Below, one piece after another: positions 11,960 to 31,752 of a stretch of 40,634 nucleotides of DNA; the stretch's first letter is position 1, and each line of letters begins with the position of its first letter. Under the pieces are notes generated by a model that was not told the DNA's origin, did not search any database, and was given only the letters and a program-made list of their open reading frames with translations. Position numbers and translations under genes: made by a program. Origin of the DNA: Nitrospinia bacterium (GTDB taxonomy: Bacteria > Nitrospinota > Nitrospinia > JACRGO01); contig JAJDAS010000068.1 of NCBI GenBank assembly GCA_029261755.1, forward strand, positions 1 through 40,634. Direction: 5' to 3'.

Positions 11960-11964
11960 AAATA

Positions 11965-12490: not shown

Positions 12491-12587
12491 AAACCAATTT
12501 GATTTTCGGTTTTTAAAATCAAATTTTGGTTGCAGTTAATGCTTAGCAATTGGTTTCGCTAATTTTAAGATACCGAAAACCAATTGC
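12491..12587. promoter_or_regulatory. Two adjacent inverted repeats sharing an AAACCAATT half-site (candidate operator)
   Basis: IR1: aaaccaatttgatttt (12491-12506) and aaaatcaaattttggtt (12515-12531). IR2: gcaattggtttcg (12546-12558) and cgaaaaccaattgc (12574-12587). That gives four AACCAAT-type half-sites about 90-185 nt upstream of the tetrahaem cytochrome start. Confidence 0.4.
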
Positions 12588-12675
12588 GGTAGAGTATAAA
12601 TGCTTGAAGATATGCACCCTGCATAATATACATAGCAAATCGAACCTGAACTTTATTTATTTTCGGAGAAATGTA

Positions 12676-13275
12676 ATGTCCCCAAAAAAATCTTTTTACT
12701 TTTTCTTTTTTATAGCCAGCTTGTTTTCAGTGTTATCATCCTTTGCTCCATGCTATGCCGAAGACGAGCGTATAGAAATAGAACTGAAGGATACCGCTCC
12801 CATGGCCAATCCCCTGAAGTACGCCCTGGGAGATGCAGAGTATGATAAGGCTATTAAATCCGGAGAATATTCCTACTCCGGAAATTTAAAGTGTCGGTTA
12901 TGCCACCGGGATTTCTTCATGGGTCGGAAAAAAGATCTGCATGAACATACCTTCAAAAAAAGTGTAAAGAAGCATCGGAAGGAAACCCGTTGCTTTCCTT
13001 GCCACAGCACCGGATACGGTATTGAGTCGGGCTTCACCAGTTTGAAAGAGACCCCAAAACTCGCCAATGTTCAATGCGAGGGGTGCCATGGCCCAGGAAG
13101 TAAACATAACATACTTGGCGCCAAGGGCGGCTTCTTGGCCGGGACCGATAAACCCGGCACCATTAAGAAAATGTGCCAAGCCTGCCACAACGCTAGATGG
13201 GACAAGTCTTATAAGGATGTTAACGCCGCATATGAGGTGTATAAAAACGCCGAGGCCGCCGCTACGTTGAAATAA
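12676..13275 (+). CDS. Tetrahaem c-type cytochrome (periplasmic), copy A
   Basis: Signal peptide, then four CXXCH motifs: CRLCH, CFPCH, CEGCH, CQACH. Start taken at ATG 12676 (RBS GGAGA). The track ORF start at 12550 lies in the regulatory repeats and has no signal-peptide logic. Confidence 0.88.
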   Translation: MSPKKSFYFFFFIASLFSVLSSFAPCYAEDERIEIELKDTAPMANPLKYALGDAEYDKAIKSGEYSYSGNLKCRLCHRDFFMGRKKDLHEHTFKKSVKKHRKETRCFPCHSTGYGIESGFTSLKETPKLANVQCEGCHGPGSKHNILGAKGGFLAGTDKPGTIKKMCQACHNARWDKSYKDVNAAYEVYKNAEAAATLK

Positions 13276-13318
13276 CCCAAACCCAGTTTGCAGGAAAGAA
13301 ATGTCCAAGGAGAAACCC

Positions 13319-14470: not shown

Positions 14471-14537
14471 CGTCTTAGGGATTGACTTTTTAGCTTATTA
14501 GTTCCTTACCCATTGGCTCAATCAATATTTAAATCGA

Positions 14538-14957
14538 ATGGCGGAAATAACCGCTGATTTTGAAGGCACTTTAGATAAGTTCATGGGTGACGGCGTAATG
14601 GTTTTTTTGGGTGATCCCAAATCGCCCAGTATTGATAAAGATGCTAAAAAGTGTGTTCAAATGGCCATTGAGATGCAAAAAGAGGCCAAGAAAATGAATA
14701 TGGGTGTTCGAATCGGTATTAATTCAGGAATGTGTACGGTGGGGAATTTTGGCAGTAAAAATCGAATGGATTATACAATTATCGGAAGTACCGTCAATCT
14801 TGCGGCTCGTTTGGAAAGAAGCTCCGAACCCGGGCAAATTTCGATTTCCGATTCAACATACCAACTGGTCAAGGACGCGCTTCCTTGTACTCCGAGGGAA
14901 AGTATAACGGTAAAAGGAATTGAAGGTGAGATTGTAACCTATTGGGTTGATGGGTAA
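14538..14957 (+). pseudogene. Truncated class III adenylate/guanylate cyclase catalytic domain (C-terminal part only)
   Basis: The 139-aa ORF begins at 'DKFMGDGVMVF' (second metal Asp region) and continues through 'RIGINSGMCTVGNFGS', 'YTIIGSTVNLAARLE' and 'ITVKG'. The first beta-strand with the FxDIxGFT-type metal Asp is absent, and an in-frame stop lies just upstream of the ATG. Confidence 0.5.
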
Positions 14958-15030
14958 AATGTCCAGGTTATGATTGCTATCATGGGAAGGGCCCAACAAG
15001 GTTTAAGCGAGTGCCATGGAGTAAAGGATA

Positions 15031-15064
15031 TTTTGACTTTAAAATATGGTTCTGCTAACCTTTG
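15031..15064 (+). promoter_or_regulatory. Conserved promoter-like 34-nt box, copy 1 (TTGACT-N17-TAACCT)
   Basis: ttttgactttaaaatatggttctgctaacctttg matches 19825-19858 at 30 of 34 positions. It lies about 100 nt upstream of the hybrid kinase start. Confidence 0.45.
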
Positions 15065-15164
15065 CTCAAATTGTTCCTTTTTATAGAGTCATTCAATCTT
15101 TTCCCTTTTTCATTCTTACGCTTTACCATTTTCTGGTAAGTAGAGCCACTTACGTCGATTAATC

Positions 15165-18079: not shown

Positions 18080-19534
18080 CTATTTCAGCGGCAGCCGGAT
18101 TACGAAATTCGCCCCGTTAAACCCTTCCACTCCGGAATAATTTCCATTTACGGCCTTGATGCTTCCGCTATGCTCTTCTACCATGCTCTTCGTGATGGCC
18201 AGCCCCAAGCCCGTGCCTCTCTTTTTTCCTTTGGTCACGAAAGGCTCAAATAAGTCATCAATAATATCATCAGGGATTCCCTCTCCCGTATCTGAAAACA
18301 CTATTTCAAGGCTGTCAGGTTGGACCAGCCGAGTCAGCGCCAAAAATCTCCCACCACTGGCCAAAACTTCCTTTGCGTTCCCGGAAATATTGAATACAGC
18401 CCTTTGAAACCTGTCACGGTCAATATTAAAATCGCCGCTATAGCTAAGCCTGGTTTTCACTTCAATGTTTTTCGACGCCATATCACTTTCAATAAAAGAA
18501 ATAATCTCTCCAAAAAAGCTTTCCACGCTGGTTTTTTCCTTAACAATTACAATTTTATTTCCACGTGAAAAGACCAGGAGGTCTTCAACCATATCAACCA
18601 GTTTGTGCACGGATTTTACTACCATGTCGCTGAAACGGGCTCTCTCTTCAGAGGTTAATTCCATTGCGAGCAGTTCAGCAAACCCTTGAATTGCGGCCAT
18701 AGGGTTCTTCAAGTCATGAATAATCCCCCCGGCCATCTGGCCGATGAGGGTGAATTTCTCATTGGTTATTTTTTCTTCAAGAAGGCGGAAATTCTCGATA
18801 CCTTCCGCAATCAAAGTAGATATTGAACTAAGAAGGGATTCATCCTCACTGGTAAATATTCCCTTAGTTTTGTTACTTAAGTTTAAGACACCCACAACCT
18901 TTTCCTTTTGCTTTAAAGGCAGGCATAACAAAGATTCGATATTGACCTTGCCTCCCTTGATGAAATCAGGATGTTTTTCGGGTTCATTGGTAATGACGGG
19001 GTTTCCGCTTTCCATCACCTTGTCGGCAATTCCTCCATTGTTTCCCGTCAGCCATGATTCTTCGTTAAGAACTTTCCCGAAAGCGGTTTTGAGGATAAAC
19101 TTGCGGCTTTTAGGTTCCATCACCATGATGGAACAATTTTCAACACTTATTTCCTGGCTAATGATCTGAGTGGCGGTAGAAAGAATATGGTCAAGATCAA
19201 CCGATGAGCTAAAAATTTCGTTTAATTTTGCAAGAAAACTCAGCTCTTTGTATTTTTGGAGTGCGTGGGTGGTGAGGCTTTTCTTTTCAAGTATATTTTG
19301 TAGGGCTATGGTAAAGAGCTTTACAGCTTTCGGGTTTTCGGCTCCGCCGGAAAAATAACCAATAAGGGTATTCTCAAAAATAACCTCATTACGTTCATAT
19401 TCTGTATGCCATTCCGTTTTAAATTCCGATGTTTCATAGAGAGGGGATCCATCAACCCTATAAAAACAAATGGGTCCCGCCAAAGTGGAAAGGCTGTCGC
19501 AAATCAATTTAATGTCTTTTTTCCTGATGATCAT
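18080..19534 (-). CDS. GAF-domain sensor histidine kinase (cytoplasmic)
   Basis: No TM segment. The GAF-like middle region includes 'VENCSIMVMEP' and 'LCLPLKQKEKVVGVLNL'. H-box 'IIHDLKNPM', G1 'DTGEGI', G2 'GTGLGLAITKSM'. Confidence 0.85.
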   Translation of the reverse strand: MIIRKKDIKLICDSLSTLAGPICFYRVDGSPLYETSEFKTEWHTEYERNEVIFENTLIGYFSGGAENPKAVKLFTIALQNILEKKSLTTHALQKYKELSFLAKLNEIFSSSVDLDHILSTATQIISQEISVENCSIMVMEPKSRKFILKTAFGKVLNEESWLTGNNGGIADKVMESGNPVITNEPEKHPDFIKGGKVNIESLLCLPLKQKEKVVGVLNLSNKTKGIFTSEDESLLSSISTLIAEGIENFRLLEEKITNEKFTLIGQMAGGIIHDLKNPMAAIQGFAELLAMELTSEERARFSDMVVKSVHKLVDMVEDLLVFSRGNKIVIVKEKTSVESFFGEIISFIESDMASKNIEVKTRLSYSGDFNIDRDRFQRAVFNISGNAKEVLASGGRFLALTRLVQPDSLEIVFSDTGEGIPDDIIDDLFEPFVTKGKKRGTGLGLAITKSMVEEHSGSIKAVNGNYSGVEGFNGANFVIRLPLK

Positions 19535-19824
19535 TTATTACGTCCATTTTTCATAATAGTCATCACTGGAATTTTATTATGTGCGTATAGTCGAAGTTTT
19601 TTCCAAGTTTCTAAATTGTCGGAGCGTACTCAAAAAAACAATCCAATCGATTAATCATAAAGGTTCTCAATTTTTTGGTCAAGAAGGGTTATTTGTATAT
19701 TTTGGAGGTGGCGTGCACTAGCTGTATCCTGTTGAAATTTTGGGCAGCCTCAAGTGGCATTATGTCAGAAAAATCATACTTATTTTACCTAGCAAGGAAC
19801 TTGTAAAGACAAACCGGCCGTTTT

Positions 19825-19858
19825 TTTTGACTTTAAAAAGTGATTCTGTTAACCTTTG
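19825..19858 (+). promoter_or_regulatory. Conserved promoter-like 34-nt box, copy 2
   Basis: ttttgactttaaaaagtgattctgttaacctttg has the same orientation as copy 1 at 15031-15064. It is separated from the next + strand genes (20501) by the repeat cluster. Confidence 0.4.
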
Positions 19859-19972
19859 GTAAAATATGGGGGATAGTTTATAAAATCACTCTATTTTCTT
19901 CTCACTGCAAGCCTTTTTTGTAACCGTTCGCGGGGAGAAGGTTTGCTTGTCCGGCTATCCCGCTATTCCTCT

Positions 19973-20286
19973 CGTTCCCAGGCTCTGCCTCAATGGCATT
20001 AAGTTAAGGAAATTTTTCCGGTTTTGTCCCGGAGGGACAGCCGAAATTAGCCCAGCAATTCATTGCTGGGTAAAGGACCCAAATAATAAAGTCCCGTAGG
20101 GACGACTGAATCCCAGGGTTCGTTCCACATCGCTTTTCAGCCGTCCCTCCGGGACTTAAAAATCTCTGGCGGCAGACCCAGCGATAAATCGCTGGGCTAT
20201 TTTCGATTGTCCCTCTGGGACAAAAAAGAATCAAACCCCAAACCAAAAAGCTTAACTTAACGCCAGTGAGGCTCTACCTGGGAATG
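19973..20286. repeat. MITE-like element: about 36-bp terminal inverted repeats enclosing an inverted pair of about 80-nt stem-loop units
   Basis: TIRs are cgttcccaggctctgcctcaatggcattaagttaag (19973-20008) and cttaacttaacgccagtgaggctctacctgggaatg (20251-20286), matching at 29 of 36 positions when one is reverse-complemented. Inside are GTCCC-N3-GGGAC hairpins at 20026, 20091, 20143 and 20209, and cccagc-N8-gctggg hairpins at 20051-20070 and 20177-20196. Unit 20026-20103 is the inverted copy of unit 20143-20221. Confidence 0.7.
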
Positions 20287-20293
20287 CATACCC

Positions 20294-20435
20294 GGAGGCT
20301 CAGCCTCCTGTATGAAAAGGTCAGAAGGTTTCTTTTTCCCAACGCGTTCCCATGAAACATTAGAACCGAAGTTCCTACTTCCTCCACTTAAGAGGCAGAC
20401 CCTCTTAAACTGCATTCCCAGGCTGAGCCTGGGAA
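20294..20435. repeat. Additional short palindromic (REP-like) hairpins
   Basis: ggaggctcagcctcc (20294-20308) and ttcccaggctgagcctgggaa (20415-20435). They use the same cccagg/cctggg and ggagg/cctcc vocabulary as the neighbouring TIRs. Confidence 0.6.
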
Positions 20436-20500
20436 CGAGAGGAGGCTTCAAAAGCCCCTAAAAAAAGCAAATCCCTGTTGAGCTTAAAGGAAAATATCAT

Positions 20501-20869
20501 ATGGCAAGTATATTGGTTATTGATGATGATGAACAGATTTTAATTATGCTTAAGAAGATGCTTGAGCTGGCTGGGTACGAAGTTACTACAGCTAACAACG
20601 GCATAAAAGGGCTCCAACTTTTCCGCCAAAAACAGACTGATTTAGTTATTACAGATATTATTATGCCTGATAAAGAAGGAATAGAGACCATCGGTGACTT
20701 AAAAAAAGAATTTCCTGATGTAAAAATTATTGCAGTATCAGGAGGCGGGATCAATGAAGCTGAACACTATCTGGACATTGCATCCGACTTTGGCGCGGAA
20801 ATGACTTTTGCCAAACCTATAGACAGTAAAAATTTTTTAGAAGGAGTAAAAAAAATCCTATTACACTGA
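20501..20869 (+). CDS. Single-domain response regulator (tandem copy 1)
   Basis: 'ILVIDDDEQIL', 'LVITDIIMPDKEG', 'IIAVSGGG', 'FAKP'. 122 aa. Confidence 0.9.
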   Translation: MASILVIDDDEQILIMLKKMLELAGYEVTTANNGIKGLQLFRQKQTDLVITDIIMPDKEGIETIGDLKKEFPDVKIIAVSGGGINEAEHYLDIASDFGAEMTFAKPIDSKNFLEGVKKILLH

Positions 20870-20901
20870 AATTACCCTAATGTATTAGAGGAAAATATAA
20901 T

Positions 20902-21270
20902 ATGGCAAGTATACTGGTTATTGATGATGATGAACAGATTTTAATTTTGCTTAAAAGTATGCTCAAGCGGCAAGGGCACGAGATTGTTACCGCTAATAAC
21001 GGCGAGGAGGGAATCAAACTTTTCCGTCAAAAACCGACAGATTTGGTTATAACAGATCTTGTTATGCCTGAAAAAGAAGGAATAGAGACTATTATTGAGC
21101 TTAAAAAGGATTTTCCTGACGTGAAAATTATTGCAGTTTCAGGAGGCGGGATTAATGTTGCTGAAAACTACCTGGATGTTGCATCTGATTTTGGCGCGGA
21201 TATGGCTTTTGCCAAACCCTTAGACAGTGAAAAGTTTTTAGAAGGAGTGGGGAAAATCCTGCAACAATAG
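20902..21270 (+). CDS. Single-domain response regulator (tandem copy 2)
   Basis: Same length as copy 1 and near-identical at the 5' end, including the RBS region. 'LVITDLVMPEKEG', 'IIAVSGGG'. Confidence 0.9.
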   Translation: MASILVIDDDEQILILLKSMLKRQGHEIVTANNGEEGIKLFRQKPTDLVITDLVMPEKEGIETIIELKKDFPDVKIIAVSGGGINVAENYLDVASDFGADMAFAKPLDSEKFLEGVGKILQQ

Positions 21271-21338
21271 ATTTTTGTATCACTTATTTCGGGATTCCAC
21301 ATAATAGTGTCGCAGTACTCTTTGCCTGGAGAGGATTT

Positions 21339-21950
21339 ATGGTCAAAAAAAGAACTTTGAATTTTCACCTTATTTTCTTAGTATTTATCTCTCCTTTAAT
21401 TTTCGTTTCCTTCTGTAACGCGCAAGATGACCGCATTGAAGCGGAACTGAAAGACACCTCCCCTTTTGTTAATCCTTTAAAGTCTGCCCTCGGAGACGTT
21501 GCATATGAAAAAGCCATAAAGTCCGGGGAGTATACTTACTCAGGCAATTTAAAATGTCGGTTATGCCACCGGGATTTTTTTATGGGCCGGAAAAAGGACC
21601 TCCATGAACATACCTTCAAAAAAAGCGTAAAAAAACATCGCAAGGAAACCCGATGTTTTCCTTGCCATGCCACGGGTTATGGTATTGACTCGGGCTTCAC
21701 CAGTTTGAAAGAGACCCCAAAACTTGCAAACGTTCAGTGCGAAGGATGCCATGGGCCGGGGCGCAAACATAATGAACTCGGAGCCAAAGGGGGATTTTTA
21801 GCCGGCACGGATAAACCAGACACCATTAAAAAAATGTGCCAGGCGTGTCACAATTCCAGATGGAATAAGTCTTATAAAGACCTGGACACTGCCTACAAGG
21901 CGTATAAAGACGCCGAGGCAGCCGCTATCGCCCCAAGCCCAGGGAAATAG
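21339..21950 (+). CDS. Tetrahaem c-type cytochrome, copy B
   Basis: Signal peptide plus CRLCH, CFPCH, CEGCH, CQACH. Long runs are identical at nucleotide level to copy A, for example cgggcttcaccagtttgaaagagaccccaaaact. Confidence 0.9.
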   Translation: MVKKRTLNFHLIFLVFISPLIFVSFCNAQDDRIEAELKDTSPFVNPLKSALGDVAYEKAIKSGEYTYSGNLKCRLCHRDFFMGRKKDLHEHTFKKSVKKHRKETRCFPCHATGYGIDSGFTSLKETPKLANVQCEGCHGPGRKHNELGAKGGFLAGTDKPDTIKKMCQACHNSRWNKSYKDLDTAYKAYKDAEAAAIAPSPGK

Positions 21951-22006
21951 TAAAAAAGTTTTTTTCTGCGGTCTCTGCGCAGCGTTAAATTATTAAGGAG
22001 AGTCTC

Positions 22007-23164
22007 ATGCGAAAATCAACTTTTGCCCTGTTTTTCCCCATTTTGTTTTTTGCATGCATTCTTTTGCCCTCTTCGGTTTGCGCGGAAAAGTCCGCTGTAG
22101 TGAAACCACAAAAAAGCATTGCCCTCGGCACGCCCGAAACCTGTGGCGCATGCCATACAAGGATTTTACAGGAGTGGTCCGGCGCCATGCATGCGAAGGC
22201 GGATCCCGAAAAAGATCCCATCGTGGGGGCCTACTATAAATATTTCTCCGAAAAAAAAATCGACACCGGGAAATGCGATAAATGCCATGCCCCAATCCGC
22301 GCCCTTTATCCGGTAGAAACCAAAGGAAACATGGAACTCAAAAAGGCCGGCGTGAACTGTATCTTCTGCCACTCGATTTATGGAAAGAACCCCGGAGAAA
22401 AACATGGAATAGATTTTTACAAGCTCGACCTCCTGAAATCACCTGCGGGCGCGTCTAAAAATAAGGAAAAAGAGGAAGCCCACAATGCGGAATTTGTGGG
22501 TATTTTCAAACATGTGGATATATGCGCCGGGTGCCACCAGGGTGGGGAAACCGACTATTACGCAAAAGGAAAACCCAAGACCCTCTGCCAACAATGCCAC
22601 ATGCCGACGAAAAAAAATATGAAGTTGGCTGATGATGGCCCGGTGCGGGAAAAAGTCTATCGCCATCTTTTCGAAGGCGGGCATTCTGAAACCTTGCTAA
22701 ACTTGGCGGCCAGTGTTGAGGGGGGGGCAAGGAAAGAGAACGACAAAACTATACTAAATCTTTCCGTGGAAAATTTTGCCGTGCACGACATTCCGGCCGG
22801 GTTTCCTCTAAGGGCTATTTATTTGAAAGTGGTGGGCCTTGATAAGAACCAAAAGCCTGTTTGGTCCAATTATGAGAAAGACCCGAAAACGGAAGACCCT
22901 TCAGGTTATTTTGCCTTGCATTTTCAAGAAGAAGATGAGCCCTATGTCCATTATGTGAAAGATGTAAAACCCATTAAGGACACACGTTTGAAAGCCTCCG
23001 CTATTGAAGAGCTTACCTATGAGGTCCCGTCGGACAAGGTGGAGACTTTTCAGGTCCGACTTTATTATCGGTTGTTGCCCAAAAGCGTTATCCAAAAGCT
23101 AGAAATCGAGGGGGAATTCCCCAGGGAAACTTTGATGTTTGAAGCTACTGTTTATGTTAATTAA
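22007..23164 (+). CDS. Pentahaem c-type cytochrome, copy B1
   Basis: Signal peptide. CGACH, CDKCH, CIFCH, CAGCH, CQQCH. The haem-free C-terminal domain is paralogous to 13319-14470. Confidence 0.9.
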   Translation: MRKSTFALFFPILFFACILLPSSVCAEKSAVVKPQKSIALGTPETCGACHTRILQEWSGAMHAKADPEKDPIVGAYYKYFSEKKIDTGKCDKCHAPIRALYPVETKGNMELKKAGVNCIFCHSIYGKNPGEKHGIDFYKLDLLKSPAGASKNKEKEEAHNAEFVGIFKHVDICAGCHQGGETDYYAKGKPKTLCQQCHMPTKKNMKLADDGPVREKVYRHLFEGGHSETLLNLAASVEGGARKENDKTILNLSVENFAVHDIPAGFPLRAIYLKVVGLDKNQKPVWSNYEKDPKTEDPSGYFALHFQEEDEPYVHYVKDVKPIKDTRLKASAIEELTYEVPSDKVETFQVRLYYRLLPKSVIQKLEIEGEFPRETLMFEATVYVN

Positions 23165-23319
23165 TATACTTTTTTCGTAACTACTCAGGTGAAAAAGTCG
23201 AAGGCTGAGGGCTAAAGTAAATCAAGTATATCGAAATACCTTAATCAAACTATTCATAACCTTTTGAGTGCTTTTTCCTTCAGCTTTCAGTCTGAACACC
23301 TTAGCACTTACCTTTTTTC

Positions 23320-24498
23320 TTGAATACTGTGCTTTCCATTAAAAAAAATCCCTTCTATTTTTCTTTTCCGTTAGTTATACTTCTCTGTTTTATTTCCCAT
23401 TTCCCTGTTGACGCCAAGGAAAACAAGGTCATCTCCAAGCCTCCCGAAAGTTCCGGGCTGCCTTCCTCGGCTTCCTGCGGAACAGAGGATTGTCATACAC
23501 GGATCTTTAAAGAATGGTCCAAAACCATGCACTCGCAATCCTCTCCGCAAAAAGACCCATTGGTAAAGGCTTTTTATGGCTACTTGGCAAAAGAAAATTA
23601 CGATACCGGGGAATGTGACGTATGCCACGTTCCCATGCGATCGGTTTATTCGAAGGAAAAAGAAAAAAACTCAGCCTTTTTTGATGAAGGGGTAAACTGT
23701 GTCTTTTGTCATTCCATTTATGGGAAAACGGCGGAGGGTGGGAAGGGATTGCATTATTATCATCTGGATTTCCTGAAACCTCTCACGGGTCCCACAAAAA
23801 CGGGCAAGGAGGCGCATGATGCCGAATTTATCGGCATGTTTAAAAAGGTAGATATATGCGCGGGTTGCCATCAAAACGGGGAAATGGAATATGCCACCAA
23901 AGGGAAAACGAAGTCTCCTTGCCAGCAATGCCACATGCCTTCTAAAAAGAAGCTAAAGTCCGCAGATATGGGTAAGGTCCGCGAAAAAGTTCACAGGCAT
24001 CTCTTTGAGGGGGGGCACTCGGAGTTATTGCTCAGTATGGCCGTTATTGTTTCCGGCGAGGCTCGAAGAGATGGCGGCAAAACCATAGTGGTGATCACCC
24101 TGGAAAATCCATCCCTCCACCCCATACCCATTGGATTCCCCCTCCGGGCCATTTATATGAAGGTGGTGGGTCTTGATGAAAATGAAGAACCGGTTTGGAC
24201 CAATTATCAGGCAAATCCCAAAAAAGAGGCGGCGGACGCCTACTTCGCCCTGTTTTTTCCGGAAGAGGATGAAGTTTATGTACACTGCGTTAAAGACATC
24301 AAGCCGGTTAAGGACACAAGGTTGCAGGCTTCTTCTACCAGGGAGTTCTCCCTTGAAGTCCCCTCGGAAAAGATAGAGACTCTACAAGTTCAGCTCTTTT
24401 ACCGTCTGCTGCCCGAGACCATCCTTAAAAAGCTGAATGTTGATGAGGCCCATGCTCCGGAGGTCCTGATGCTGGAGGAAACGATTTATGTGGATTAA
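23320..24498 (+). CDS. Pentahaem c-type cytochrome, copy B2 (first site is CX4CH)
   Basis: TTG start per the ORF track, so the exact start is uncertain. 'CGTEDCH' replaces the first CXXCH, followed by CDVCH, CVFCH, CAGCH, CQQCH. The C-terminal domain is conserved with the other two paralogues. Confidence 0.85.
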   Translation: MNTVLSIKKNPFYFSFPLVILLCFISHFPVDAKENKVISKPPESSGLPSSASCGTEDCHTRIFKEWSKTMHSQSSPQKDPLVKAFYGYLAKENYDTGECDVCHVPMRSVYSKEKEKNSAFFDEGVNCVFCHSIYGKTAEGGKGLHYYHLDFLKPLTGPTKTGKEAHDAEFIGMFKKVDICAGCHQNGEMEYATKGKTKSPCQQCHMPSKKKLKSADMGKVREKVHRHLFEGGHSELLLSMAVIVSGEARRDGGKTIVVITLENPSLHPIPIGFPLRAIYMKVVGLDENEEPVWTNYQANPKKEAADAYFALFFPEEDEVYVHCVKDIKPVKDTRLQASSTREFSLEVPSEKIETLQVQLFYRLLPETILKKLNVDEAHAPEVLMLEETIYVD

Positions 24499-26987
24499 TG
24501 ATGGAATTTTTTAAAAAGCACAACATTACCATTCTCTGTCTCACCCTCATCATCTCTCTATCTTCCCTCGCCGTTTATAATTATTTCCATCAGAAAGATA
24601 TCCTCCTCCAGCAATTAAACGTGGATACGGACAATATTGTCCAATCCGTGACCTCCAGTATTTCCAAGTTTTCGGCCATCAAGGACGTAATGAACATCCA
24701 GGACCTGATCAAGAACATCTCCTTAAAACTGGATATTTTTGAATTTCGTTACCTGGATAAAGACGGAATCATTCTGAATTCCATGTTTACGGAGGAAATC
24801 GGGAAAAAGTTTGAACGTCCCAATTTCGACATCTCGGATAAAAGCAAACTTGGAGAATTTTATCAGGATGAACGGGACATGACCAGTGTCCTTGCCATCT
24901 CCTTCCCGGTAAACAGGGATGAAGAGTTAATAAGTATTGTAGACCTTGCGGTGGATATTTCAGAATTCGATTATACTTCCGAGGAAGCCAAAGAGGCATC
25001 CATTCAAAGGATGCAAACGGACGTCACCAACTTGGTTAATTCAATTGCGAGTTCCGTCCTGACCAGCCTTTCCATTATTGAAACCGTAGATTTCTTCGAC
25101 TTTTTGAATAACTTCCTTAAATCTACGGAAAATATCGTGGAAGTGGCCATACTCGATAAAGACGGGAAAGTGACGGTGAGCAGCAACCCGGAAAGGACCG
25201 GCAAAGACCTGGGGAAGGAAACTACCCAAACCCAAAGGGGATTTATGGTTGAACAGGGGAAAGATATTTATAGGATTATCGACCACATCGATCCTGACAA
25301 ACCCGAGGGTAGCCATCTTATGCTGCTTATAGACGCCACTTCCTATGTCTCCAACGTAAGGCAAATGCTTTATACGGCCATTGCTACCTCCCTGTTCACC
25401 ATCATCTTTGCATTGACCATCGCCTATTCCATTTACCGGATTAACCTGGAAAGGGCCAAAAAGGAAAACGCGTGCTTGGAGGCAAAGGTCAAGGAAAGGA
25501 CCAAGGAGGTTGGGGACATCCTGGACAACGTGGGACAAAGCATACTAACCGTTTCGGAAGACCTGATAGTCAATCCGGAATATTCGCTGACATCCGAAGA
25601 GATCTTTGAGCAAAAACCTGCCGGGATATCTGTGGAGAAGCTTTTGTACCAGACTGAGGAGGGTGAAACAACCTTCAAAGATTGGGCAAATTTTGTCTTT
25701 GGTGACGACAGGCTAATAGATATGGACGGTCTGATTGATATTGCCGACAAAGAGATCACTATCACAGTTGGAGAAAAAAACAAAATCATCCACGCCGAGT
25801 ATCGCCCCATTTATGAAGAAGGATCGGAAAAGGTTAAAAAAATAATGTTGGTTTTAACGGATATAACTCAGCAAAAAGAAATGGAGGCCCAAAACGCCAA
25901 GGAAAGAGAAGAGCACGAACAAGTGGTCAAAATCTTAAGAGACCAGGACTCCTTCTTTTCTTTTCTCAATGATTCGAAGACTATCATTCAAGACGCTGAG
26001 CGGATTCTCGAAAAGTTGATGGAGGAAGAAATGGATCACACTCCTTTAATCAACGAATTATTTAGGGGAATGCATACCATCAAAGGAACGGCTGCGGTAT
26101 TTTCCATTCACAATGTCTCTTTACTAGCCCACGATATTGAAAACACCTTTAACGATATCCGCCAAAAGAAAGAGAAAATAGAGCCGGAGCTTACAGAAGA
26201 TTTGCGGGAAAAAATCCAAAAACTTTTTGATAACCTGGAGGGCGTTGTCACAACCTTGGGCCAACTTGTGGGAGAATCCTTTGGAACAGGGCATAAGGTA
26301 GTTAAGGTCAAGGAAGAAAAAATTACCTCCTTCAGGAAATTACTGGAAGATGCCAAGGCGTCTGATAGCATCCGCAAAGAACTTACCCAGGGTTTCCGAG
26401 ACCTACTTAAAGTCCCCATTGGTAGGGCCTTCCGCAAATTCCCGGAAATGGCGCAGCTCACGGCGGAAAAACTCGGCAAGGCGGTACATTTGGAAGTTAT
26501 AGGAGGAGACCTGGAAATAGAAAAAGAAATAGAAGACATCCTCAGCGCACCCATGACTCATATAATCCGTAATTCCGTGGACCACGGTATAGAAGACCCT
26601 TCGGGCAGGGCCATGATGGAAAAACCGGAGACAGGGTCGGTTATTGTGGATTGTAAATTGGAAGAAAATCATGTGGTCATCCGAATTAAGGATGATGGCA
26701 AGGGAATTGACCCGGAAGTGATTAAAAAATTGGTTTTGAAAAAAGGCTTTATGCCTGAGGCAGAGGTTGCCAAGCTATCGGACCAGGAGGCCATTTTTCT
26801 TATTTTTCATCCGGGCTTCAGTTCCAAAGAAGAGACCACCGACCTTTCCGGACGAGGGGTCGGCATGGACGTGGTGAGGACGGAAGTGGAAAAATGCGGT
26901 GGCACCGTGGAGCTGGAGAGCGAGGTCATGAAAGGAACTACCATTACTTTAAGAATTCCTGAATCCATCCAAAGCGCGACTGGCTAA
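24498..26987 (+). CDS. Membrane sensor fused to a CheA-type kinase core (shared sensor domain, paralogue 3): HPt + CheA-like ATPase, no CheW-like domain
   Basis: The N-terminal about 330 aa are paralogous to the other two kinases. HPt motif 'FRGMHTIKGTAAVFS' (His codon 26073-26075). CheA-style core: 'VPIGRAFRKFPEMAQLTAEKLGKAVHLEVIGGDLEIEKEI', 'HIIRNSVDHGIE', 'DDGKGID', 'SGRGVGMDVV'. The protein ends about 30 aa after the G2 box, and no HisKA H-box is present. ATG 24498 overlaps the upstream TAA by 1 nt; an alternative ATG is at 24501. Confidence 0.85.
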   Translation: MMEFFKKHNITILCLTLIISLSSLAVYNYFHQKDILLQQLNVDTDNIVQSVTSSISKFSAIKDVMNIQDLIKNISLKLDIFEFRYLDKDGIILNSMFTEEIGKKFERPNFDISDKSKLGEFYQDERDMTSVLAISFPVNRDEELISIVDLAVDISEFDYTSEEAKEASIQRMQTDVTNLVNSIASSVLTSLSIIETVDFFDFLNNFLKSTENIVEVAILDKDGKVTVSSNPERTGKDLGKETTQTQRGFMVEQGKDIYRIIDHIDPDKPEGSHLMLLIDATSYVSNVRQMLYTAIATSLFTIIFALTIAYSIYRINLERAKKENACLEAKVKERTKEVGDILDNVGQSILTVSEDLIVNPEYSLTSEEIFEQKPAGISVEKLLYQTEEGETTFKDWANFVFGDDRLIDMDGLIDIADKEITITVGEKNKIIHAEYRPIYEEGSEKVKKIMLVLTDITQQKEMEAQNAKEREEHEQVVKILRDQDSFFSFLNDSKTIIQDAERILEKLMEEEMDHTPLINELFRGMHTIKGTAAVFSIHNVSLLAHDIENTFNDIRQKKEKIEPELTEDLREKIQKLFDNLEGVVTTLGQLVGESFGTGHKVVKVKEEKITSFRKLLEDAKASDSIRKELTQGFRDLLKVPIGRAFRKFPEMAQLTAEKLGKAVHLEVIGGDLEIEKEIEDILSAPMTHIIRNSVDHGIEDPSGRAMMEKPETGSVIVDCKLEENHVVIRIKDDGKGIDPEVIKKLVLKKGFMPEAEVAKLSDQEAIFLIFHPGFSSKEETTDLSGRGVGMDVVRTEVEKCGGTVELESEVMKGTTITLRIPESIQSATG

Positions 26988-27106
26988 TGGCTATTTAAGT
27001 ATTTTGCTGATTTTGACATGCTGCTTTGAATCTGATATCTTTTTGTAGCTTTTTCATCTGATTACCTTTCTTTACCAGAATCACCTTTTTTTTTACAGGA
27101 GCGCTT

Positions 27107-28780
27107 ATGTCAGAAGAAGACTTTTTGTTTGCCAAAGAAGATACAGATATAAATACAGGTGCCTGGAAAGTGCTCGTTGTGGATGATGAAAAAGACGTCC
27201 ATGATTTGACTAGCCTTGTTCTCTCCGATTTCAAATATCTTGGGAAATCTCTCCGGTTTTTGAATGCCCTATCGGGTGAAGAAGGAAGAAAAATCATAGA
27301 AGAAAACTCCGACATCGCCATGATTTTGCTTGACGTGGTTATGGAAACGGATGACGCGGGTCTGAAACTGGTGGATTTCATCCGCAAGGAAAAGGGGCTT
27401 CATGCCGTTCGTATCATCTTGAGAACAGGTCAACCCGGAAGCGCACCAGAGCGTAGCGTTATTGACAATTACGACATTGACGGCTATAAGGCAAAAACCG
27501 AACTAACGTCCCAAAAACTCTACACGACTGTTAGGAGCGCCCTGAAAAATTTTAACGATATCCGTATTGCGGAAGAAAGCCAACGTAACCTGAAAATTGC
27601 CGAGGAAACATCAGAGCTTAGGGAAAGCCTGACTTCCATGATCATCCACGACCTAAAAAACCCCCTTTCTACTATTCGGTCCGTTCTGGAGCTATGGAAA
27701 TCAAACAGCCTTTTCTCCATTGACCCTGACCTGTTTTTCCAGCTAAAGCTTATCTCGCAAGCCTCGGAAACGATTTCCGAGATGGTGCTTGAGCAATTGA
27801 GTCTTTCTCAACTGGAAGCCGGGAGATATGAACCCAAGAATGAACTTGTTGATCTCAACCAGCTTGCACGTTTCATTTACCTAAGCAATTCCCAGGATTT
27901 TGATGATTCTCTGAAGTTTGAATTTTACGCCTCTCCAACCGTCTTTCCTCAACTCTACCAGGACAAAGAACTTATTCGAAGGACTGTGACCAATCTTTTT
28001 AGCAACGCTATTAGGCATACTCCCAAAGGATTTGTAAAAATATCTTTTGAATATGACGAAGGAACCGAAACATTAACGATTTCCGTTTCCGATTCGGGAA
28101 TAGGAATCAAGGAAGAAGATATTCCCCACCTTTTTGACAAATTTTATCAGGCGGTTAGCCATCATAAAAAAAGTTCTAATTTCGGGATCGGCTTAAGTTT
28201 TTGCGATTTTGCGGTAAAAGCCATGGGTGGGACCATTAGTGTTAAGAGCGTCATTGGACAGGGGACGGATTTCATTATTTCCATCCCCGCTAAAAAAGGA
28301 GAGAAGACATGCGAACCCTATGAACTTCCCTCTTTGGAGCCGGTAAAGAAAGAGGCCCTCCAACAAGAACCGCAGGATCGGAAAGGACCAGGCCAAGAAG
28401 AATCGGGCTCGCCTGAAGACTTAGGAATTAAAGTTCTCCTCGTAGACGACAGCTCCACCATCAGAAAAATAATGACCGCGTTTTTGAAAAAATTTGGCAT
28501 TTTCCAGGTAGACGAAGCCAGAGATGGAAAATTGGGAGTGGATAAAATCAGTGAAAATCCTTATGATCTGGTCTTTTTTGATATCAGTATGCCGATAATG
28601 GGCGGGCTTGAGGCCGCAAAGATAGTAAAATCAAAATTTCCCGATCTGCGCATTGTGATGCTAACCGCTGAATTCCAAAAAAGGGAAGAAGCAAAAATCA
28701 TAGGCGTAACCTCTTTTTTAACAAAACCGTTTACTTTTGATAGTATCCAAGAGTGCTTGAAAAACTTAGGTATCATTTAG
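27107..28780 (+). CDS. Receiver('RTGQPG' type)-histidine kinase-receiver hybrid
   Basis: N-terminal REC variant: 'WKVLVVDDEKDV', 'ILLDVVMETDDAG', 'VRIILRTGQPGSAPE', 'YDIDGYKAKTELT'. H-box 'IIHDLKNPL', N 'NLFSNAIRHTP', G1 'DSGIGI'. C-terminal canonical REC: 'VLLVDDSS', 'VFFDISMPIMGG', 'TKPF'. Confidence 0.88.
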   Translation: MSEEDFLFAKEDTDINTGAWKVLVVDDEKDVHDLTSLVLSDFKYLGKSLRFLNALSGEEGRKIIEENSDIAMILLDVVMETDDAGLKLVDFIRKEKGLHAVRIILRTGQPGSAPERSVIDNYDIDGYKAKTELTSQKLYTTVRSALKNFNDIRIAEESQRNLKIAEETSELRESLTSMIIHDLKNPLSTIRSVLELWKSNSLFSIDPDLFFQLKLISQASETISEMVLEQLSLSQLEAGRYEPKNELVDLNQLARFIYLSNSQDFDDSLKFEFYASPTVFPQLYQDKELIRRTVTNLFSNAIRHTPKGFVKISFEYDEGTETLTISVSDSGIGIKEEDIPHLFDKFYQAVSHHKKSSNFGIGLSFCDFAVKAMGGTISVKSVIGQGTDFIISIPAKKGEKTCEPYELPSLEPVKKEALQQEPQDRKGPGQEESGSPEDLGIKVLLVDDSSTIRKIMTAFLKKFGIFQVDEARDGKLGVDKISENPYDLVFFDISMPIMGGLEAAKIVKSKFPDLRIVMLTAEFQKREEAKIIGVTSFLTKPFTFDSIQECLKNLGII

Positions 28781-29061
28781 AGCATTAAAAAAAAGATAGC
28801 GGCATATTCTTTGCAATATTAACAAAACGGCTAAACTATTAACAAAGCAAGAGTTACTATGAATTTTACTTAGAAGCTTTTGAATTCGGCGCGCATTTAA
28901 ATTTGTCGAGAAGTTTATTTGCCTGAATATACCGGGACAGCCGTGCAATCTGCCATGGCAATTTGCATGATTTATGCATTTTACAAGACTTCAAGTCCAA
29001 TCATTTCGAATATCGAGCTTTAGGAGGGTTTTATAAATTGCCTGTTGCCAAAGAAAATCAA

Positions 29062-30387
29062 ATGTTAAATAGCGAACTGATTTTCGCTGATGAAAATTCC
29101 GGCGAGGATATGCAAGACCAGGGGACCTGGAAGGTAATGATTGTGGACGATGAACCGGAGGTTCATAGTGTTACGGAACTGGCTCTTGGAAATTTTGAAT
29201 TTGAAGGGAAACCACTGGAATTCATTAATGCATACTCCGGAGAAGAGGCGAAGCTATTAATCCAGGACCACTTCGACACTGCGCTGATCCTTCTGGATGT
29301 GGTTATGGAGAAGGATGACTCTGGCCTCAAGTTCGTACAATACGTCCGGAATGAGTTGAAGCATTATCTTGTGAGAATCATTTTACGAACCGGACAGCCG
29401 GGGTACGCGCCTGAAAAGCAGGTCATAGTGGATTACGATATCAACGACTATAAGTCTAAGGCGGAGCTTACAGCAACCAATCTCTTTGCCTCGGTTGTAG
29501 CGGCGTTGAGGGGATCTCGGGATTTAAGGTCCCTGGAAAAAACCAGAAATGAATTAGAAGAAATTGCAAAAGCCGCCGGGCAGTTTGTACCTATTGAGTT
29601 TTTAAAGCACTTAGAAAAGAAAAGCATTGTGGATGTAAAACTGGGAGATTGCGTCCAGCTTAATATGTCGGTTCTTTTTGCGGATATTCGTTCTTTTGCT
29701 TCCCTTTCGGAAAATATGAGCCCTCAGGAAAATTTCCAATTCCTGAATTCCTTCCTAAAGCTTATGGGGCCTCACATTACGGAACATAATGGCTTTATCG
29801 ATAAGTACATAGGCGATGCGATCATGTCCTTATTTGACTCACCGGAAAACGCGGTTTCAGCAGCCATTGCCATGCTCCGGGAGCTTCGTGACTTTAATGA
29901 AGGGCGTGGGAAGGCCGGTGATCCTCTTATTCGCATTGGAACCGGAATCAATACCGGGACCCTTATGTTGGGAACCATCGGCGGGATTAACCGCATGGAA
30001 GGGACCGTTATCAGCGATGCGGTCAATCTGGCATCGCGCATTGAACAACTTACAAAAGCCTATAAGACGCCGCTTTTAATCAGTGAAAAAACCTACTCGG
30101 GATTGCCCGATCCCGGCAAATTTTGTATTCGATTTCTTGATCGCGTGAAGGTTAAAGGCAAATCCCAAGGGATTGCGGTTTATGAGGTTTTTGACGCGGA
30201 TTCTCCCGCTGTTCGGGAAGGCAAAATAAAAACACAAGAGATTTTTGAAAAAGCCTGGTCGCTTTATGGTCAAAAGGATTTGAGTGGGGCCAGGGGCTTG
30301 TTTGAGGAATGCCTGGCAGAAAATCCGGGAGATACCGTGGCCAAAATCTATGTGGAAAGATGCTTGAATCCAGTGAGAAGCGGTTAG
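29062..30387 (+). CDS. Receiver('RTGQPG' type)-class III adenylate/guanylate cyclase
   Basis: Start set at ATG 29062 by analogy with the paralogue N-termini (acidic leader, then 'WKVMIVDDEPEV'); the track start at 28963 is a TTG. 'VRIILRTGQPGYAPE' is present. Cyclase domain: 'VLFADIRSFASLSE', 'KYIGDAIMSLF', 'IRIGTGINTGTLMLGTIGG', 'TVISDAVNLASRIE'. A TPR-like C-terminal tail follows. Confidence 0.88.
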   Translation: MLNSELIFADENSGEDMQDQGTWKVMIVDDEPEVHSVTELALGNFEFEGKPLEFINAYSGEEAKLLIQDHFDTALILLDVVMEKDDSGLKFVQYVRNELKHYLVRIILRTGQPGYAPEKQVIVDYDINDYKSKAELTATNLFASVVAALRGSRDLRSLEKTRNELEEIAKAAGQFVPIEFLKHLEKKSIVDVKLGDCVQLNMSVLFADIRSFASLSENMSPQENFQFLNSFLKLMGPHITEHNGFIDKYIGDAIMSLFDSPENAVSAAIAMLRELRDFNEGRGKAGDPLIRIGTGINTGTLMLGTIGGINRMEGTVISDAVNLASRIEQLTKAYKTPLLISEKTYSGLPDPGKFCIRFLDRVKVKGKSQGIAVYEVFDADSPAVREGKIKTQEIFEKAWSLYGQKDLSGARGLFEECLAENPGDTVAKIYVERCLNPVRSG

Positions 30388-30451
30388 ATACTTACACGTT
30401 AAGTCTGAGAAGTCATCTCTCCGAATTAAAAAATAACTCAACTGACCCATT

Positions 30452-31690
30452 ATGTTTGAAGAAGATTCCGATTTATTGATTTTCAAGGAAGAAGAGGAAG
30501 GTACCGAATATCCTTCGGAAGCTCCCTGGAAAGTAATGATTGTGGATGATGAAGAAGACGTCCATGAAATGACGAAGATGACTCTTGACTCCATTACCTT
30601 CGAAAATAAGGGATTGCAGTTTGTCAGTGCCTTTTCCGGCGGGGAAGCCAAAAGACTCCTGAGTGAAAATTCCGACATAGCCTTAATCCTTTTGGACGTT
30701 GTAATGGAGACCGATGACGCAGGTCTGCGTGTGGTCAAATTTATTCGTCAGGACCAGGAGAATCATATGGTTCGGATCATTCTTCGCACAGGCCAGCCTG
30801 GTGTTGCCCCGGAAAATAAGGTGGTCGTGGATTACGATATCAATGACTATAAAGAAAAGGCGGAACTTACCTCTCAAAAGATGTTTACCTCAGTTATATC
30901 CTCCCTAAGGTCTTACCGTAACATAACGGAACTTGTGGAACAGGATAGGGCCGAACAGGAGATGAAAAAGGCGAAGGAAATAGCCGAGGAAAAGGCCAAG
31001 CTCAAAGACCTTTTTGTTTCCATAGTGGCGCATGATTTAAGAAATCCCTTGTCTACGATCAAGGGTTTTGTAGAACTTGTCGTTGGAGATAAAGCACATC
31101 CTGTTTCTGAAAAACATTCCCAATGTCTCACGCGAACTTTAAATGTCACGACAAACCTGATTGAAATGACCAAGAGACTTCTCTCTGTCGGCATCATGAG
31201 TTCCGGTAAGATGGAGCTTCACAAAGAACTTTTTGATGGCAACGAGACAGTGGCAATGCTTGTCGAACGCTTAGAGCCCTCGGCTGAAGGGAAAGGGGTC
31301 GAACTTATTAACAGCGTGTCAAAAACTAAAATCTTCGCGGATCGTGAACTCTTTAACCAAGTCATTCATAACTTGGTATCAAACGCTATGAAGTTCAGTA
31401 ACCCGAACGGCAAAATCCTCATATTTACTGTGGAGGGAGAACCCACCTGCATAGCCGTGAAAGACGAGGGTACGGGAATTGGTGAGAAAATCTTGCCGGA
31501 TATATTTAAGCATGAGATAAAAACCACTAGACTTGGAACAGCAGGTGAAAGAGGAACGGGACTTGGCCTCCCTTACTGCAAAGACATTATGGAGGCCCAC
31601 GGCGGGACACTGACCATTGAAACGACTCCCGAGAAAGGGAGCATTTTTTACGCCCGACTGCCGGAAGGAGAAAAAATCACTGACCATTAA
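30452..31690 (+). CDS. Receiver('RTGQPG' type)-histidine kinase
   Basis: 'WKVMIVDDEEDV', 'ILLDVVMETDDAG', 'VRIILRTGQPGVAPE'. H-box 'VAHDLRNPL', N 'NLVSNAMKFSNP', G1 'DEGTGI', G2 'GTGLGLPYCKDI'. Confidence 0.9.
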   Translation: MFEEDSDLLIFKEEEEGTEYPSEAPWKVMIVDDEEDVHEMTKMTLDSITFENKGLQFVSAFSGGEAKRLLSENSDIALILLDVVMETDDAGLRVVKFIRQDQENHMVRIILRTGQPGVAPENKVVVDYDINDYKEKAELTSQKMFTSVISSLRSYRNITELVEQDRAEQEMKKAKEIAEEKAKLKDLFVSIVAHDLRNPLSTIKGFVELVVGDKAHPVSEKHSQCLTRTLNVTTNLIEMTKRLLSVGIMSSGKMELHKELFDGNETVAMLVERLEPSAEGKGVELINSVSKTKIFADRELFNQVIHNLVSNAMKFSNPNGKILIFTVEGEPTCIAVKDEGTGIGEKILPDIFKHEIKTTRLGTAGERGTGLGLPYCKDIMEAHGGTLTIETTPEKGSIFYARLPEGEKITDH

Positions 31691-31752
31691 TGCTCGTTTA
31701 TTGTCATGGACTGCCATTTACTGACGGCGAAACCAAATGACCAATGACCATT

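Follow-up and report, generated by a model that had tools for sequence, protein, structure and literature searches.

The 40,634-nucleotide contig JAJDAS010000068.1 of a Nitrospinia bacterium (assembly GCA_029261755.1), referred to here as the window, carries on its forward strand a row of genes composed of two receivers (20501 and 20902; genes are named by their first coordinate), three cytochromes c, a sensor-kinase gene and, after a spacer of 119 nt, the genes 27107, 28963 and 30452 (Table 1). This study concerns the kinase gene, whose start codon shares bases with the stop codon of the preceding cytochrome gene in a TAATG overlap. A preliminary description of the DNA had read its product as a transmembrane sensor fused directly to the core of the chemotaxis kinase CheA, and the main point of that reading is upheld: the gene encodes an inner-membrane sensor kinase in which a catalytic half of CheA (class II) type is coupled to a sensor of its own and the CheW-like P5 domain is missing. 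To this we add that the protein belongs to a family which has a dedicated PAS-like-HPt-P4 cassette and no recognisable canonical dimerisation domain, P3.

Domain architecture of the kinase

Only two segments of the protein are hydrophobic (Kyte-Doolittle mean above 1.6 over 19 residues), namely the two transmembrane helices listed in Table 1. The two-pass extracytoplasmic sensor of the preliminary description is borne out by these segments and by an AlphaFold2 model of residues 1-323 (pLDDT 85), in which a dCache fold is predicted in the order long helix, first PAS-like module, long helix, second PAS-like module, second transmembrane helix. A long N-terminal helix and two PAS-like alpha/beta modules between two transmembrane helices are the features that mark a dCache domain. 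Foldseek searches with the periplasmic domain returned the sensor domains of Mlp24, PctA, DctB and KinD (probability 1.0) as well as TlpA; Pfam Cache matches in this part of the protein stayed below the curated cut-offs.

The motifs from which a CheA-like core had been proposed are all present and in place: HTIKGTAAVFS at residues 526-536, with His526 encoded by the CAT codon at 26073-26075, FRKFPEMAQLTAEKLGKAVHLEV (which begins FRKFPEMAQ) at 645-667, HIIRNSVDHGIE at 688-699 and GRGVGMDVV at 785-793; DDGKGID occupies 732-738. Pfam assigned Hpt to residues 489-576 (E 1e-10) and HATPase_c to 686-823 (E 9e-20), with no match to HisKA, H-kinase_dim or CheW. In phmmer searches of the PDB, residues 484-593 aligned to CheA P1 and residues 611-821 to the P3P4 and P4 structures of Thermotoga maritima CheA (E about 1e-45), and the NCBIfam CheA models matched the kinase through their P4 part only. 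Comparison with profile hidden Markov models (HMMs) had been proposed as the means of telling an HPt from a HisKA domain, and it decided for the former. Both the HPt and the ATP-binding domain are of the CheA type, not HisKA, and they are fused in one polypeptide with the two-transmembrane sensor.

An AlphaFold2 model of residues 320-829, built on an alignment of 94 relatives, had a mean pLDDT of 93. In the numbering of this cassette (add 319 for protein numbering), a long helix (2-25) leads into a PAS-like unit (29-136; beta-beta-alpha-alpha-alpha-beta-beta-beta) and then into an HPt bundle of five helices (138-272) with His207, which is His526 of the protein, on helix three; the bundle is followed by a loop of low confidence (273-286), by two short helices (287-298, 304-317) and by the alpha/beta P4 domain (319-502). 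What had been described as a PAS-sized linker is modelled as a PAS-like domain, and there is no room in the model for a P2 domain, the absence of which had also been noted. Foldseek superimposed the modelled P4 on crystal structures of CheA P4 with TM-scores of 0.85-0.94 and 38-43% identity; the full cassette aligned to the class I kinases VicK (4i5s), YF1 (4gcz) and WalK as well, at low TM-scores.

The protein ends 36 residues past the G2 box, which is 8 residues past the last P4 strand. Neither Pfam nor a CheW-like HMM built from 55 CheA P5 domains (positive control: a Nitrospinae CheA, 137 bits) detected a P5 domain in it, and the window translated in all six frames gave no match to this HMM either (best E 0.22). 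The preliminary description would have failed had a frameshifted CheW domain followed the gene, but there is no CheW-like reading frame in the spacer (26988-27106). The six-frame translation likewise held no signalling domain of a methyl-accepting chemotaxis protein (MCP), and the annotated neighbours in the window include no che genes. Since the protein lacks P2 and P5 and has a sensor fused to the core, and since the window contains neither a CheW nor an MCP gene, the input would not arrive through chemoreceptor arrays. An input hard-wired to a CheA catalytic core, as originally suggested, is the straightforward reading of these features.

The proposed CheA dimerisation/ATPase core must be divided: the ATPase part stands (P4, E about 1e-45) but the dimerisation part does not, as no P3 was found. 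The FRKFPEM motif is the first strand of P4 and not a dimerisation domain, and Pfam H-kinase_dim (PF02895) was detected neither in the kinase nor in any of the 61 relatives scanned. An hhalign comparison of the 115 family residues ahead of P4 with the corresponding stretch from 71 CheW-bearing CheAs produced an alignment over the final 31 columns only (probability 95.8%), from the last part of the second P3 helix into the beginning of P4. The two helices of canonical P3 have 26-28 residues each (PMC10782961); those in its place in the model have only 12 and 14. The linker between HPt and P4 may be a divergent remnant of the second P3 helix. A Foldseek match of the full cassette to CheA P3P4 (TMt 0.74) was discounted as evidence for P3, since P4 alone could give it.

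A family with the PAS-like-HPt-P4 cassette

The nearest relatives of the kinase are two Nitrospinae/Nitrospinota proteins (73% and 53% identity) with identical architecture and an identical end. Three metagenome proteins of 844-846 aa, in which CHASE4 and HAMP replace the Cache-like sensor, are 44-45% identical to it over the whole cytoplasmic part. Residues 320-829 were searched against 1.84 billion cluster representatives. Among the best 150 matches, 98 matched the whole cassette in a single stretch, ended no more than 30 residues past P4 and had no CheW-like domain; 38 were CheW-bearing CheAs, which matched in HPt and P4 only, and 16 had other C-terminal extensions. The collection after a profile search comprised 349 proteins, of which 164 have the PAS-like domain together with P4 and 117 have a CheW-like domain, with no protein in both groups. 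The end of the protein lies within 30 residues of P4 in 130 of the 164. Our kinase has the features that define this group, the whole cassette of about 500 aa in one stretch and an end at P4. The search for the same architecture in other genomes, which had been put forward as a check, has thus been productive (164 proteins with the cassette).

Input domains vary widely. At least one transmembrane segment precedes the cassette in about 70% of the 98 proteins and exactly two do so in 40. A Pfam census of 61 members gave HATPase_c in 61, Hpt in 60, HAMP in 33, GAF in 12, PAS in about 9, 7TMR-DISM in 6, dCache in 4, CHASE4, REC and cNMP-binding in 2 each, and NIT and CHASE5 in 1 each, with CheW and H-kinase_dim in none of the 61. 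Hosts include Cupriavidus pauculus, C. plantarum, Burkholderia sp. IMCC1007, Ralstonia chuxiongensis, Methylobacter, a Pseudomonadales metagenome-assembled genome (MAG), Bdellovibrionales, Oligoflexia, Planctomycetota, Fibrobacteria, SAR324 and Bacillota. Judged by domain content and alignment, the kinase is a member of a large and widespread family with varied input domains, not a singular oddity. Databases list these proteins as 'ATP-binding protein', 'Hpt domain-containing protein', 'HAMP domain-containing protein' or 'MCP four helix bundle domain-containing protein', and JGI as 'chemotaxis sensor kinase CheA'. A contig scan with a generic CheA G2-box pattern returned, among the matches listed, mostly canonical CheAs, with family members at 6 of 80 loci. 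A full-text literature search found no paper on sensor-fused, P5-less CheA-like kinases, although one may have been overlooked elsewhere; the family is apparently undescribed. Papers that the search did return, on the Rvv system of Vibrio cholerae, archaeal two-component systems, Methanosarcina kinases and the Nautilia genome, had no bearing on it.

Conservation within the family follows the catalytic elements. Across the aligned members (n=94 and 61) the HPt residues His526, Lys529, Gly530 and Glu548 are invariant or nearly so, His526 strictly, as are the P4 residues H688, N692, D695-H696-G697, E699, G734, G736, S784-G785-R786-G787 and G789. This conservation of the HPt and of the P4 boxes argues for an active phosphorylation chemistry of the CheA kind. 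A phylogenetic placement of the ATPase domain had also been suggested beforehand. In a neighbour-joining tree of 214 P4 domains, a biased sample with unstable bootstraps, one split separated all 141 family members and 4 CheW-bearing CheAs from 67 CheW-bearing CheAs, and in bootstrap replicates 130-141 members stayed together with 0-18 CheAs. The family groups together against the CheAs and appears cohesive; the tree leaves a single origin unsettled.

Some members have features of their own. Those at the beta- and gammaproteobacterial loci L009 (7808-8767), L010 (about 8100-8390), L017 (7605-8330) and L055 (2256-3032) have the order 4HB_MCP-HAMP-PAS-like-HPt-P4, and they are adjoined by a short open reading frame (ORF) with a fragment of an MCP signalling domain and by a stand-alone receiver, with no CheW. 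At L010 the frame with the MCP fragment overlaps the kinase gene, and its status as a gene is uncertain. P0087, P0255 and P0273 continue past P4 and have a phosphatase domain of the CheX/CheC kind at the C-terminus; in L003 a CheC/CheX-like gene is found close to the kinase.

The sensor and the neighbouring cytochromes

The first 340 residues of the kinase are common to many GGDEF proteins (from Campylobacterota and others), to two MCPs and to two other kinases of the window, 15165-17681 (HisKA-HATPase-REC, 81%) and 6740-8497 on the reverse strand (HisKA-HATPase, 65%). A metagenome scan with an alignment of the sensor only yielded 49 loci. Upstream sequence reaches about 430 nt or more in 45 of them, and every one of these has, upstream on the same strand, a homologue of the 203-aa cytochrome, in most cases with its gene ending 15-60 nt before the sensor gene. 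The cytochrome is likewise upstream in three further loci (L003-L005). About 40 of the sensor-bearing metagenome loci have GGDEF as output, two have an MCP and the rest have kinases. In 50 of 53 cases (loci L088-L135, L003-L005 and the window) the sensor gene is immediately preceded by that of a tetrahaem cytochrome c, with four types of output. The gene pair was found in Nitrospinota, Campylobacterota and other environmental lineages, and no paper on it was found in a full-text search of the literature.

The three cytochromes before the kinase have signal peptides. The 203-aa one shows a weak likeness to cytochrome c554, and entry 5ze8, a pentahaem c552, resembles the larger one. No Cys or His is invariant in the alignment of the sensor domain and the sensor contains no CXXCH motif, which argues that it carries no covalent haem of its own and that any haem would sit on the partner.

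The window contains a second version of the same unit, in front of the 15165 kinase (Table 1). Its cytochromes are 77% and 56% identical to those before the CheA-like kinase, and the two sensors share 81% of their amino acids over residues 1-337. The similarity ends at about residue 337 (nucleotide 25508), inside the signalling helix (S-helix) at KVKERT; the S-helix with its ERT signature has been defined previously (PMC1592074). Beyond this helix the 15165 paralogue is a HisKA kinase and the CheA-like one has PAS-like-HPt-P4, so that HisKA occurs in the window in a kinase that bears the same sensor. Cytochromes and sensor were copied together in this genome, and the copies are attached at the S-helix to two distinct kinase cores. 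Behind its cytochromes and ahead of its hybrid kinase, the 15165 module contains an ORF of 139 aa (14538-14957, forward strand) whose match covers no more than the C-terminal two thirds of a class III nucleotide cyclase domain (positions 55-182 of the 183-position profile) and which may be the remnant of a REC-cyclase gene like 28963.

From gene pairing, gene overlap and co-duplication we infer that sensor and cytochrome form a two-protein periplasmic sensing unit, and the sensor of the kinase is very likely one half of such a cytochrome-sensor pair. Since the sensor is almost always encoded beside a tetrahaem cytochrome, the input is probably not a free ligand alone.

In the window the cytochrome-sensor row is headed by a [NiFe] hydrogenase (8712-12432, forward strand) with subunits of 314 aa (small) and 477 aa (large) and a HycI protease; a Uma2-family gene (11399-11959) lies between the large subunit and HycI. 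The hydrogenase itself is encoded at 8712-11105, and its small subunit has the twin-arginine motif RREFLK. The large subunit, which ends in DPCMACAVH and 15 further residues, has its best matches among periplasmic [NiFeSe]/group 1a enzymes (E 6e-108). Two MCP loci, like the window, have a row that begins with the small subunit, the large subunit and HycI; at L005 (286-3196) this order precedes an MCP with the same sensor. The hydrogenase-cytochrome-sensor row may represent an H2-linked sensing operon.

Candidate targets, proposed mechanism and relation to known systems

The receivers 20501 and 20902 are ordinary single-domain CheY-like proteins. The 'RTGQPG' receivers downstream, to which the preliminary description had drawn attention, proved to be real: three paralogous N-terminal receivers (27107-27580, 28963-29500 and 30452-30900) are 52-55% identical to one another and only 19-24% identical to other receivers in the window. 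They share the motifs RIILRTGQPG and YDI[ND].YK.K.ELT and keep the acidic pocket and the acceptor Asp. A search for this receiver type in related loci found none, so that comparison lends no support to a link with the kinase. By gene adjacency, the neighbouring receivers are candidate targets. Of the 10 family loci examined, 8 have a stand-alone receiver no further than about 3.5 kb from the kinase. At L003 the neighbours are REC, CheC/CheX-like and GGDEF genes on the divergent strand and a convergent NtrC-type regulator. A scan of 19500-32000 for promoters and terminators gave no more sites than shuffled sequences did, and a promoter-like site at 27013-27041 is therefore no more than a hint that 27107 could have a promoter of its own.

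Table 1. Features of the kinase, its gene row and the paralogous module (positions in the window)
Feature	Position	Strand	Basis
Stand-alone CheY-like receiver, 122 aa, heads the gene row; candidate phospho-acceptor	20501-20869	+	adjacency only
Second stand-alone CheY-like receiver, 122 aa; candidate phospho-acceptor	20902-21270	+	adjacency only
Tetrahaem cytochrome c, 203 aa, 4 CXXCH, signal peptide; conserved partner of sensor	21339-21950	+	motif count, homologues
Pentahaem cytochrome c, 385 aa, 5 CXXCH, signal peptide	22007-23164	+	motif count
Second copy of larger cytochrome, 392 aa, 4 CXXCH and 1 CX4CH	23320-24498	+	motif count
Sensor-kinase gene	24498-26987	+	ORF of 829 aa
Transmembrane helix 1, aa 8-30	24519-24587	+	hydropathy; helix in AlphaFold2 model
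Periplasmic dCache-like sensor domain, aa 31-289, two PAS-like modules on a long helix	24588-25364	+	AlphaFold2, Foldseek, weak Pfam Cache
Transmembrane helix 2, aa 290-313	25365-25436	+	hydropathy; AlphaFold2 model
Signalling helix (S-helix), ERT signature KVKERT	25437-25532	+	AlphaFold2; paralogue comparison; definition of PMC1592074
Cytoplasmic PAS-like domain, aa 348-455, family-specific 'linker'	25539-25862	+	AlphaFold2 secondary-structure order; Pfam blind to it
HPt (P1-like) helical bundle, aa 457-591; His526 codon 26073-26075	25866-26270	+	Pfam, PDB matches, AlphaFold2
Flexible linker and two short helices, aa 592-637; no recognisable H-kinase_dim	26271-26408	+	AlphaFold2, hhalign, Pfam
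CheA-type ATP-binding domain P4, aa 638-821; N, G1, F and G2 boxes intact	26409-26960	+	Pfam, phmmer, Foldseek
REC(RTGQPG type)-HisKA-HATPase-REC hybrid kinase; possible acceptor	27107-28780	+	adjacency only
REC(RTGQPG type)-class III nucleotide cyclase; possible acceptor	28963-30387	+	adjacency only
REC(RTGQPG type)-HisKA-HATPase kinase; possible acceptor	30452-31690	+	adjacency only
Paralogous module: tetrahaem cytochrome (12550), pentahaem cytochrome (13301), hybrid HisKA kinase (15165)	12550-17681	+	sequence comparison
DNA match, CheA-like side to 12761-14385 (HisKA side)	21424-23079		69% identity
DNA match, CheA-like side to 13495-14421 (HisKA side)	23523-24449		69% identity
DNA match, CheA-like side to 15150-16172 (HisKA side)	24486-25508		78% identity

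The window as a whole is a dense signalling island. On the reverse strand a protein of 1821 aa (31753-37218) combines a Ser/Thr kinase, an AAA_16 STAND ATPase, TPR, GAF and the ATPase domain of a histidine kinase, and it is adjoined by a Crp-type regulator with a cyclic-nucleotide-binding domain (37267-37983, reverse strand); one might speculate that this regulator reads the product of the cyclase 28963. Two copies of the Acido-Lenti-1 RNA motif (20025-20070, reverse strand, 49 bits; 20177-20222, forward strand, 42 bits) stand 107 nt apart in opposite orientation in the extended non-coding region that precedes the row of receivers, cytochromes and kinase, and the second copy overlaps a terminator-like hairpin. 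At 44-1934 on the forward strand lies a group II intron, with an Rfam D1-D4 match at 44-299 (126 bits) and a reverse transcriptase/maturase ORF at 492-1934.

The reading that we favour, and hold as a whole to be fairly probable, runs from a sensor that reads cytochromes through the S-helix and the PAS-like domain to autophosphorylation by HPt and P4 and on to the neighbouring receivers. The exported cytochromes would take electrons from periplasmic donors, for example the Tat-exported [NiFe] hydrogenase, and the dCache-like domain would read their state by protein-protein contact, as LuxQ does with LuxP and TorS with TorT and TorC. The signal, transmitted via the second transmembrane helix, the S-helix and the PAS-like domain, would alter the access of the HPt to P4, and P4 would then phosphorylate His526. 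The dimer would be held by the transmembrane, S-helix and PAS parts rather than by P3. The phosphorylated HPt could donate to the stand-alone receivers 20501 and 20902 and perhaps also to the three RTGQPG receivers, which would lead to further kinases and to a nucleotide cyclase.

Several points weigh against this scheme. Autophosphorylation, phosphotransfer, dimerisation and cytochrome binding are all predictions. The pairing has exceptions: two sensor kinases of L001, a locus from a related Nitrospinae MAG, among them the orthologue P0002 of our kinase, and the reverse-strand paralogue 6740-8497 have no adjacent tetrahaem cytochrome, and the Cache pocket might hold a small-molecule ligand. 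The receivers were assigned by adjacency in a neighbourhood crowded with other kinases that could serve them, and the P4 tree has the sampling bias and bootstrap instability mentioned above. Moreover, the gene for P0002 lies tail to tail with a complete che cluster and may therefore have some link to chemosensory signalling. That cluster (L001 12512-22287, reverse strand) encodes an MCP, an MCP-ODP (di-iron oxygen-binding), a stand-alone ODP protein, CheB, CheW and a CheA-REC with two CheW-like domains.

It might be thought that the Cache-like domain simply binds a small molecule and that the cytochromes are co-regulated or are themselves a regulated output, which would leave the HPt-P4 mechanism unchanged. 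The fold matches to the ligand-binding dCache domains of Mlp24, PctA, DctB and KinD point this way, as do the three sensor genes without a neighbouring tetrahaem cytochrome, and we regard this explanation as unlikely, although it deserves serious consideration. A gene pair kept in 50 of 53 cases over four output types is hard to ascribe to a shared regulated target; the genes overlap or sit 15-60 nt apart, and cytochromes and sensor were co-duplicated with a break exactly at the S-helix. A different proposal concerns the other end of the protein. Several hybrid kinases of the window terminate in a receiver without carrying an HPt, and P0006, a relative of the 15165 kinase, does have a C-terminal HPt; the HPt of our kinase could thus be mainly a phosphorelay station fed by the receivers of hybrid kinases (for example 15165 or 27107), with P4 regulatory or inactive. 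This we find improbable, because the ATP-binding boxes of P4 and the His-Lys-Glu set of CheA P1 are invariant or nearly so across the family and the fixed order of HPt and P4 is that of CheA. A relay function in addition to autophosphorylation is possible.

The missing P5 invites two further explanations. A split CheA, to which a separate CheW-like protein encoded elsewhere supplies P5 in trans so that arrays are still used, would fit the che cluster beside P0002, with its MCPs, CheW, CheB and CheA-REC, and the MCP-fragment ORFs that adjoin the beta- and gammaproteobacterial members. We nevertheless consider it very improbable: the 40.6 kb of the window contain no CheW or MCP, the L001 cluster is convergent and has a complete CheA of its own, the kinase has its own transmembrane sensor, CheW is found in 0 of 164 family members, and canonical P3, which is seated in the array core, is undetectable. 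A truncated or mis-assembled CheA, or a pseudogene that has lost P5, has nothing to recommend it beyond the missing domain and can be given practically no credence. Orthologues at 73% and 53% identity stop at the same place, and 130 of the 164 family members end no more than 30 aa past P4; the ORF is uninterrupted, and none of the frames after the gene holds a CheW-like sequence. The endpoint shared across relatives rules out a truncation artefact.

CheA is the textbook kinase without a sensor of its own, which works only inside receptor-CheW arrays. Compared with the CheAs of T. maritima (1b3q/4xiv) and Escherichia coli (6s1k), which have the order P1-P2-P3-P4-P5, the 24498-26987 kinase is alike in its HxxKG phospho-acceptor, in the position of the HPt before the kinase domain and in P4 (35-43% identity, TM-score about 0.9). 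It differs in being membrane-bound with its own sensor, in lacking P2, P5 and a recognisable P3, in the extra PAS-like domain before the HPt and in having no CheW or MCP genes near it within the window. Of the features that define a CheA it thus has P1 and P4 but neither a recognisable P3 nor P5, nor the sensorless build, nor, within the window, the che-gene context. In a survey of 13,673 CheA sequences (Berry, Andrianova, Zhulin 2023; PMC10782961), CheW was present in 100%, CheA was without a sensor domain, H-kinase_dim was always accompanied by HATPase_c and CheW, and a 'bipartite CheA' was named. A protein with its own sensor and no CheW domain is not a CheA by that definition; the survey set was drawn from MiST CheA calls, and proteins like the 24498-26987 kinase lie outside it. 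With class I kinases such as VicK (4i5s), YF1 (4gcz) and WalK our kinase has in common a transmembrane sensor, a signalling helix, PAS, a helical acceptor and an ATP-binding domain. No HisKA/DHp domain precedes its HATPase_c, however; the acceptor is a monomeric HPt four-helix bundle rather than a HisKA/DHp hairpin, and the ATP-binding domain is of the CheA type. The split CheAs of Rhodobacter sphaeroides, CheA3 (P1 and P5) and CheA4 (P3-P4-P5), illustrate likewise that CheA modules can be rearranged and still signal, but they keep P5 and act in chemoreceptor clusters, whereas our kinase has no P5 and has a sensor.

For the sensing unit the parallels are drawn on function. In LuxQ-LuxP and TorS-TorT/TorC a periplasmic sensor domain reads a separately encoded periplasmic protein. 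The sensor of LuxQ is a tandem PAS (dCache-like) domain that reads LuxP, and the sensor of TorS differs from ours in being an all-helical bundle; the cytochrome binding proposed here is deduced from gene pairing. Geobacter GSU0582 and GSU0935 are periplasmic haem-PAS chemoreceptor sensors in which the haem is held covalently inside the sensor domain. There c-type haem feeds periplasmic redox sensing into a signalling protein, as it would here, but our sensor has neither CXXCH nor an invariant Cys or His and its haems would be on separate proteins. A passage in PMC8534201 describes binding of TorC, a c-type (apo)cytochrome, to the sensor kinase TorS, and this is a precedent for a cytochrome that acts on a sensor kinase.

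Taken together, the two parts of this study could mean that there is a widespread CheA-derived, array-free class of kinases, without P5 and canonical P3, on which ordinary sensor domains act directly by way of the dedicated PAS-like-HPt cassette, and that a portable tetrahaem-cytochrome/dCache redox module serves cyclic di-GMP synthesis, chemotaxis receptors and both classical and CheA-derived kinases. We put this joint proposal forward tentatively, as a possibility that is somewhat less than even. The current labels have practical consequences, since 'CheA' (JGI) inflates counts of chemosensory systems and 'ATP-binding protein' (NCBI) hides the signalling class. If the proposal is true, the catalytic chemistry of CheA also serves as an ordinary one-protein sensor kinase, and the family would give a simple system for studying how the access of P1 to P4 is regulated. 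If cytochrome and sensor are a physical pair, they would be a new bacterial way to read periplasmic electron flow, and the [NiFe] hydrogenase that precedes the pair in some operons would make the module a sensor of H2 or electron flux.

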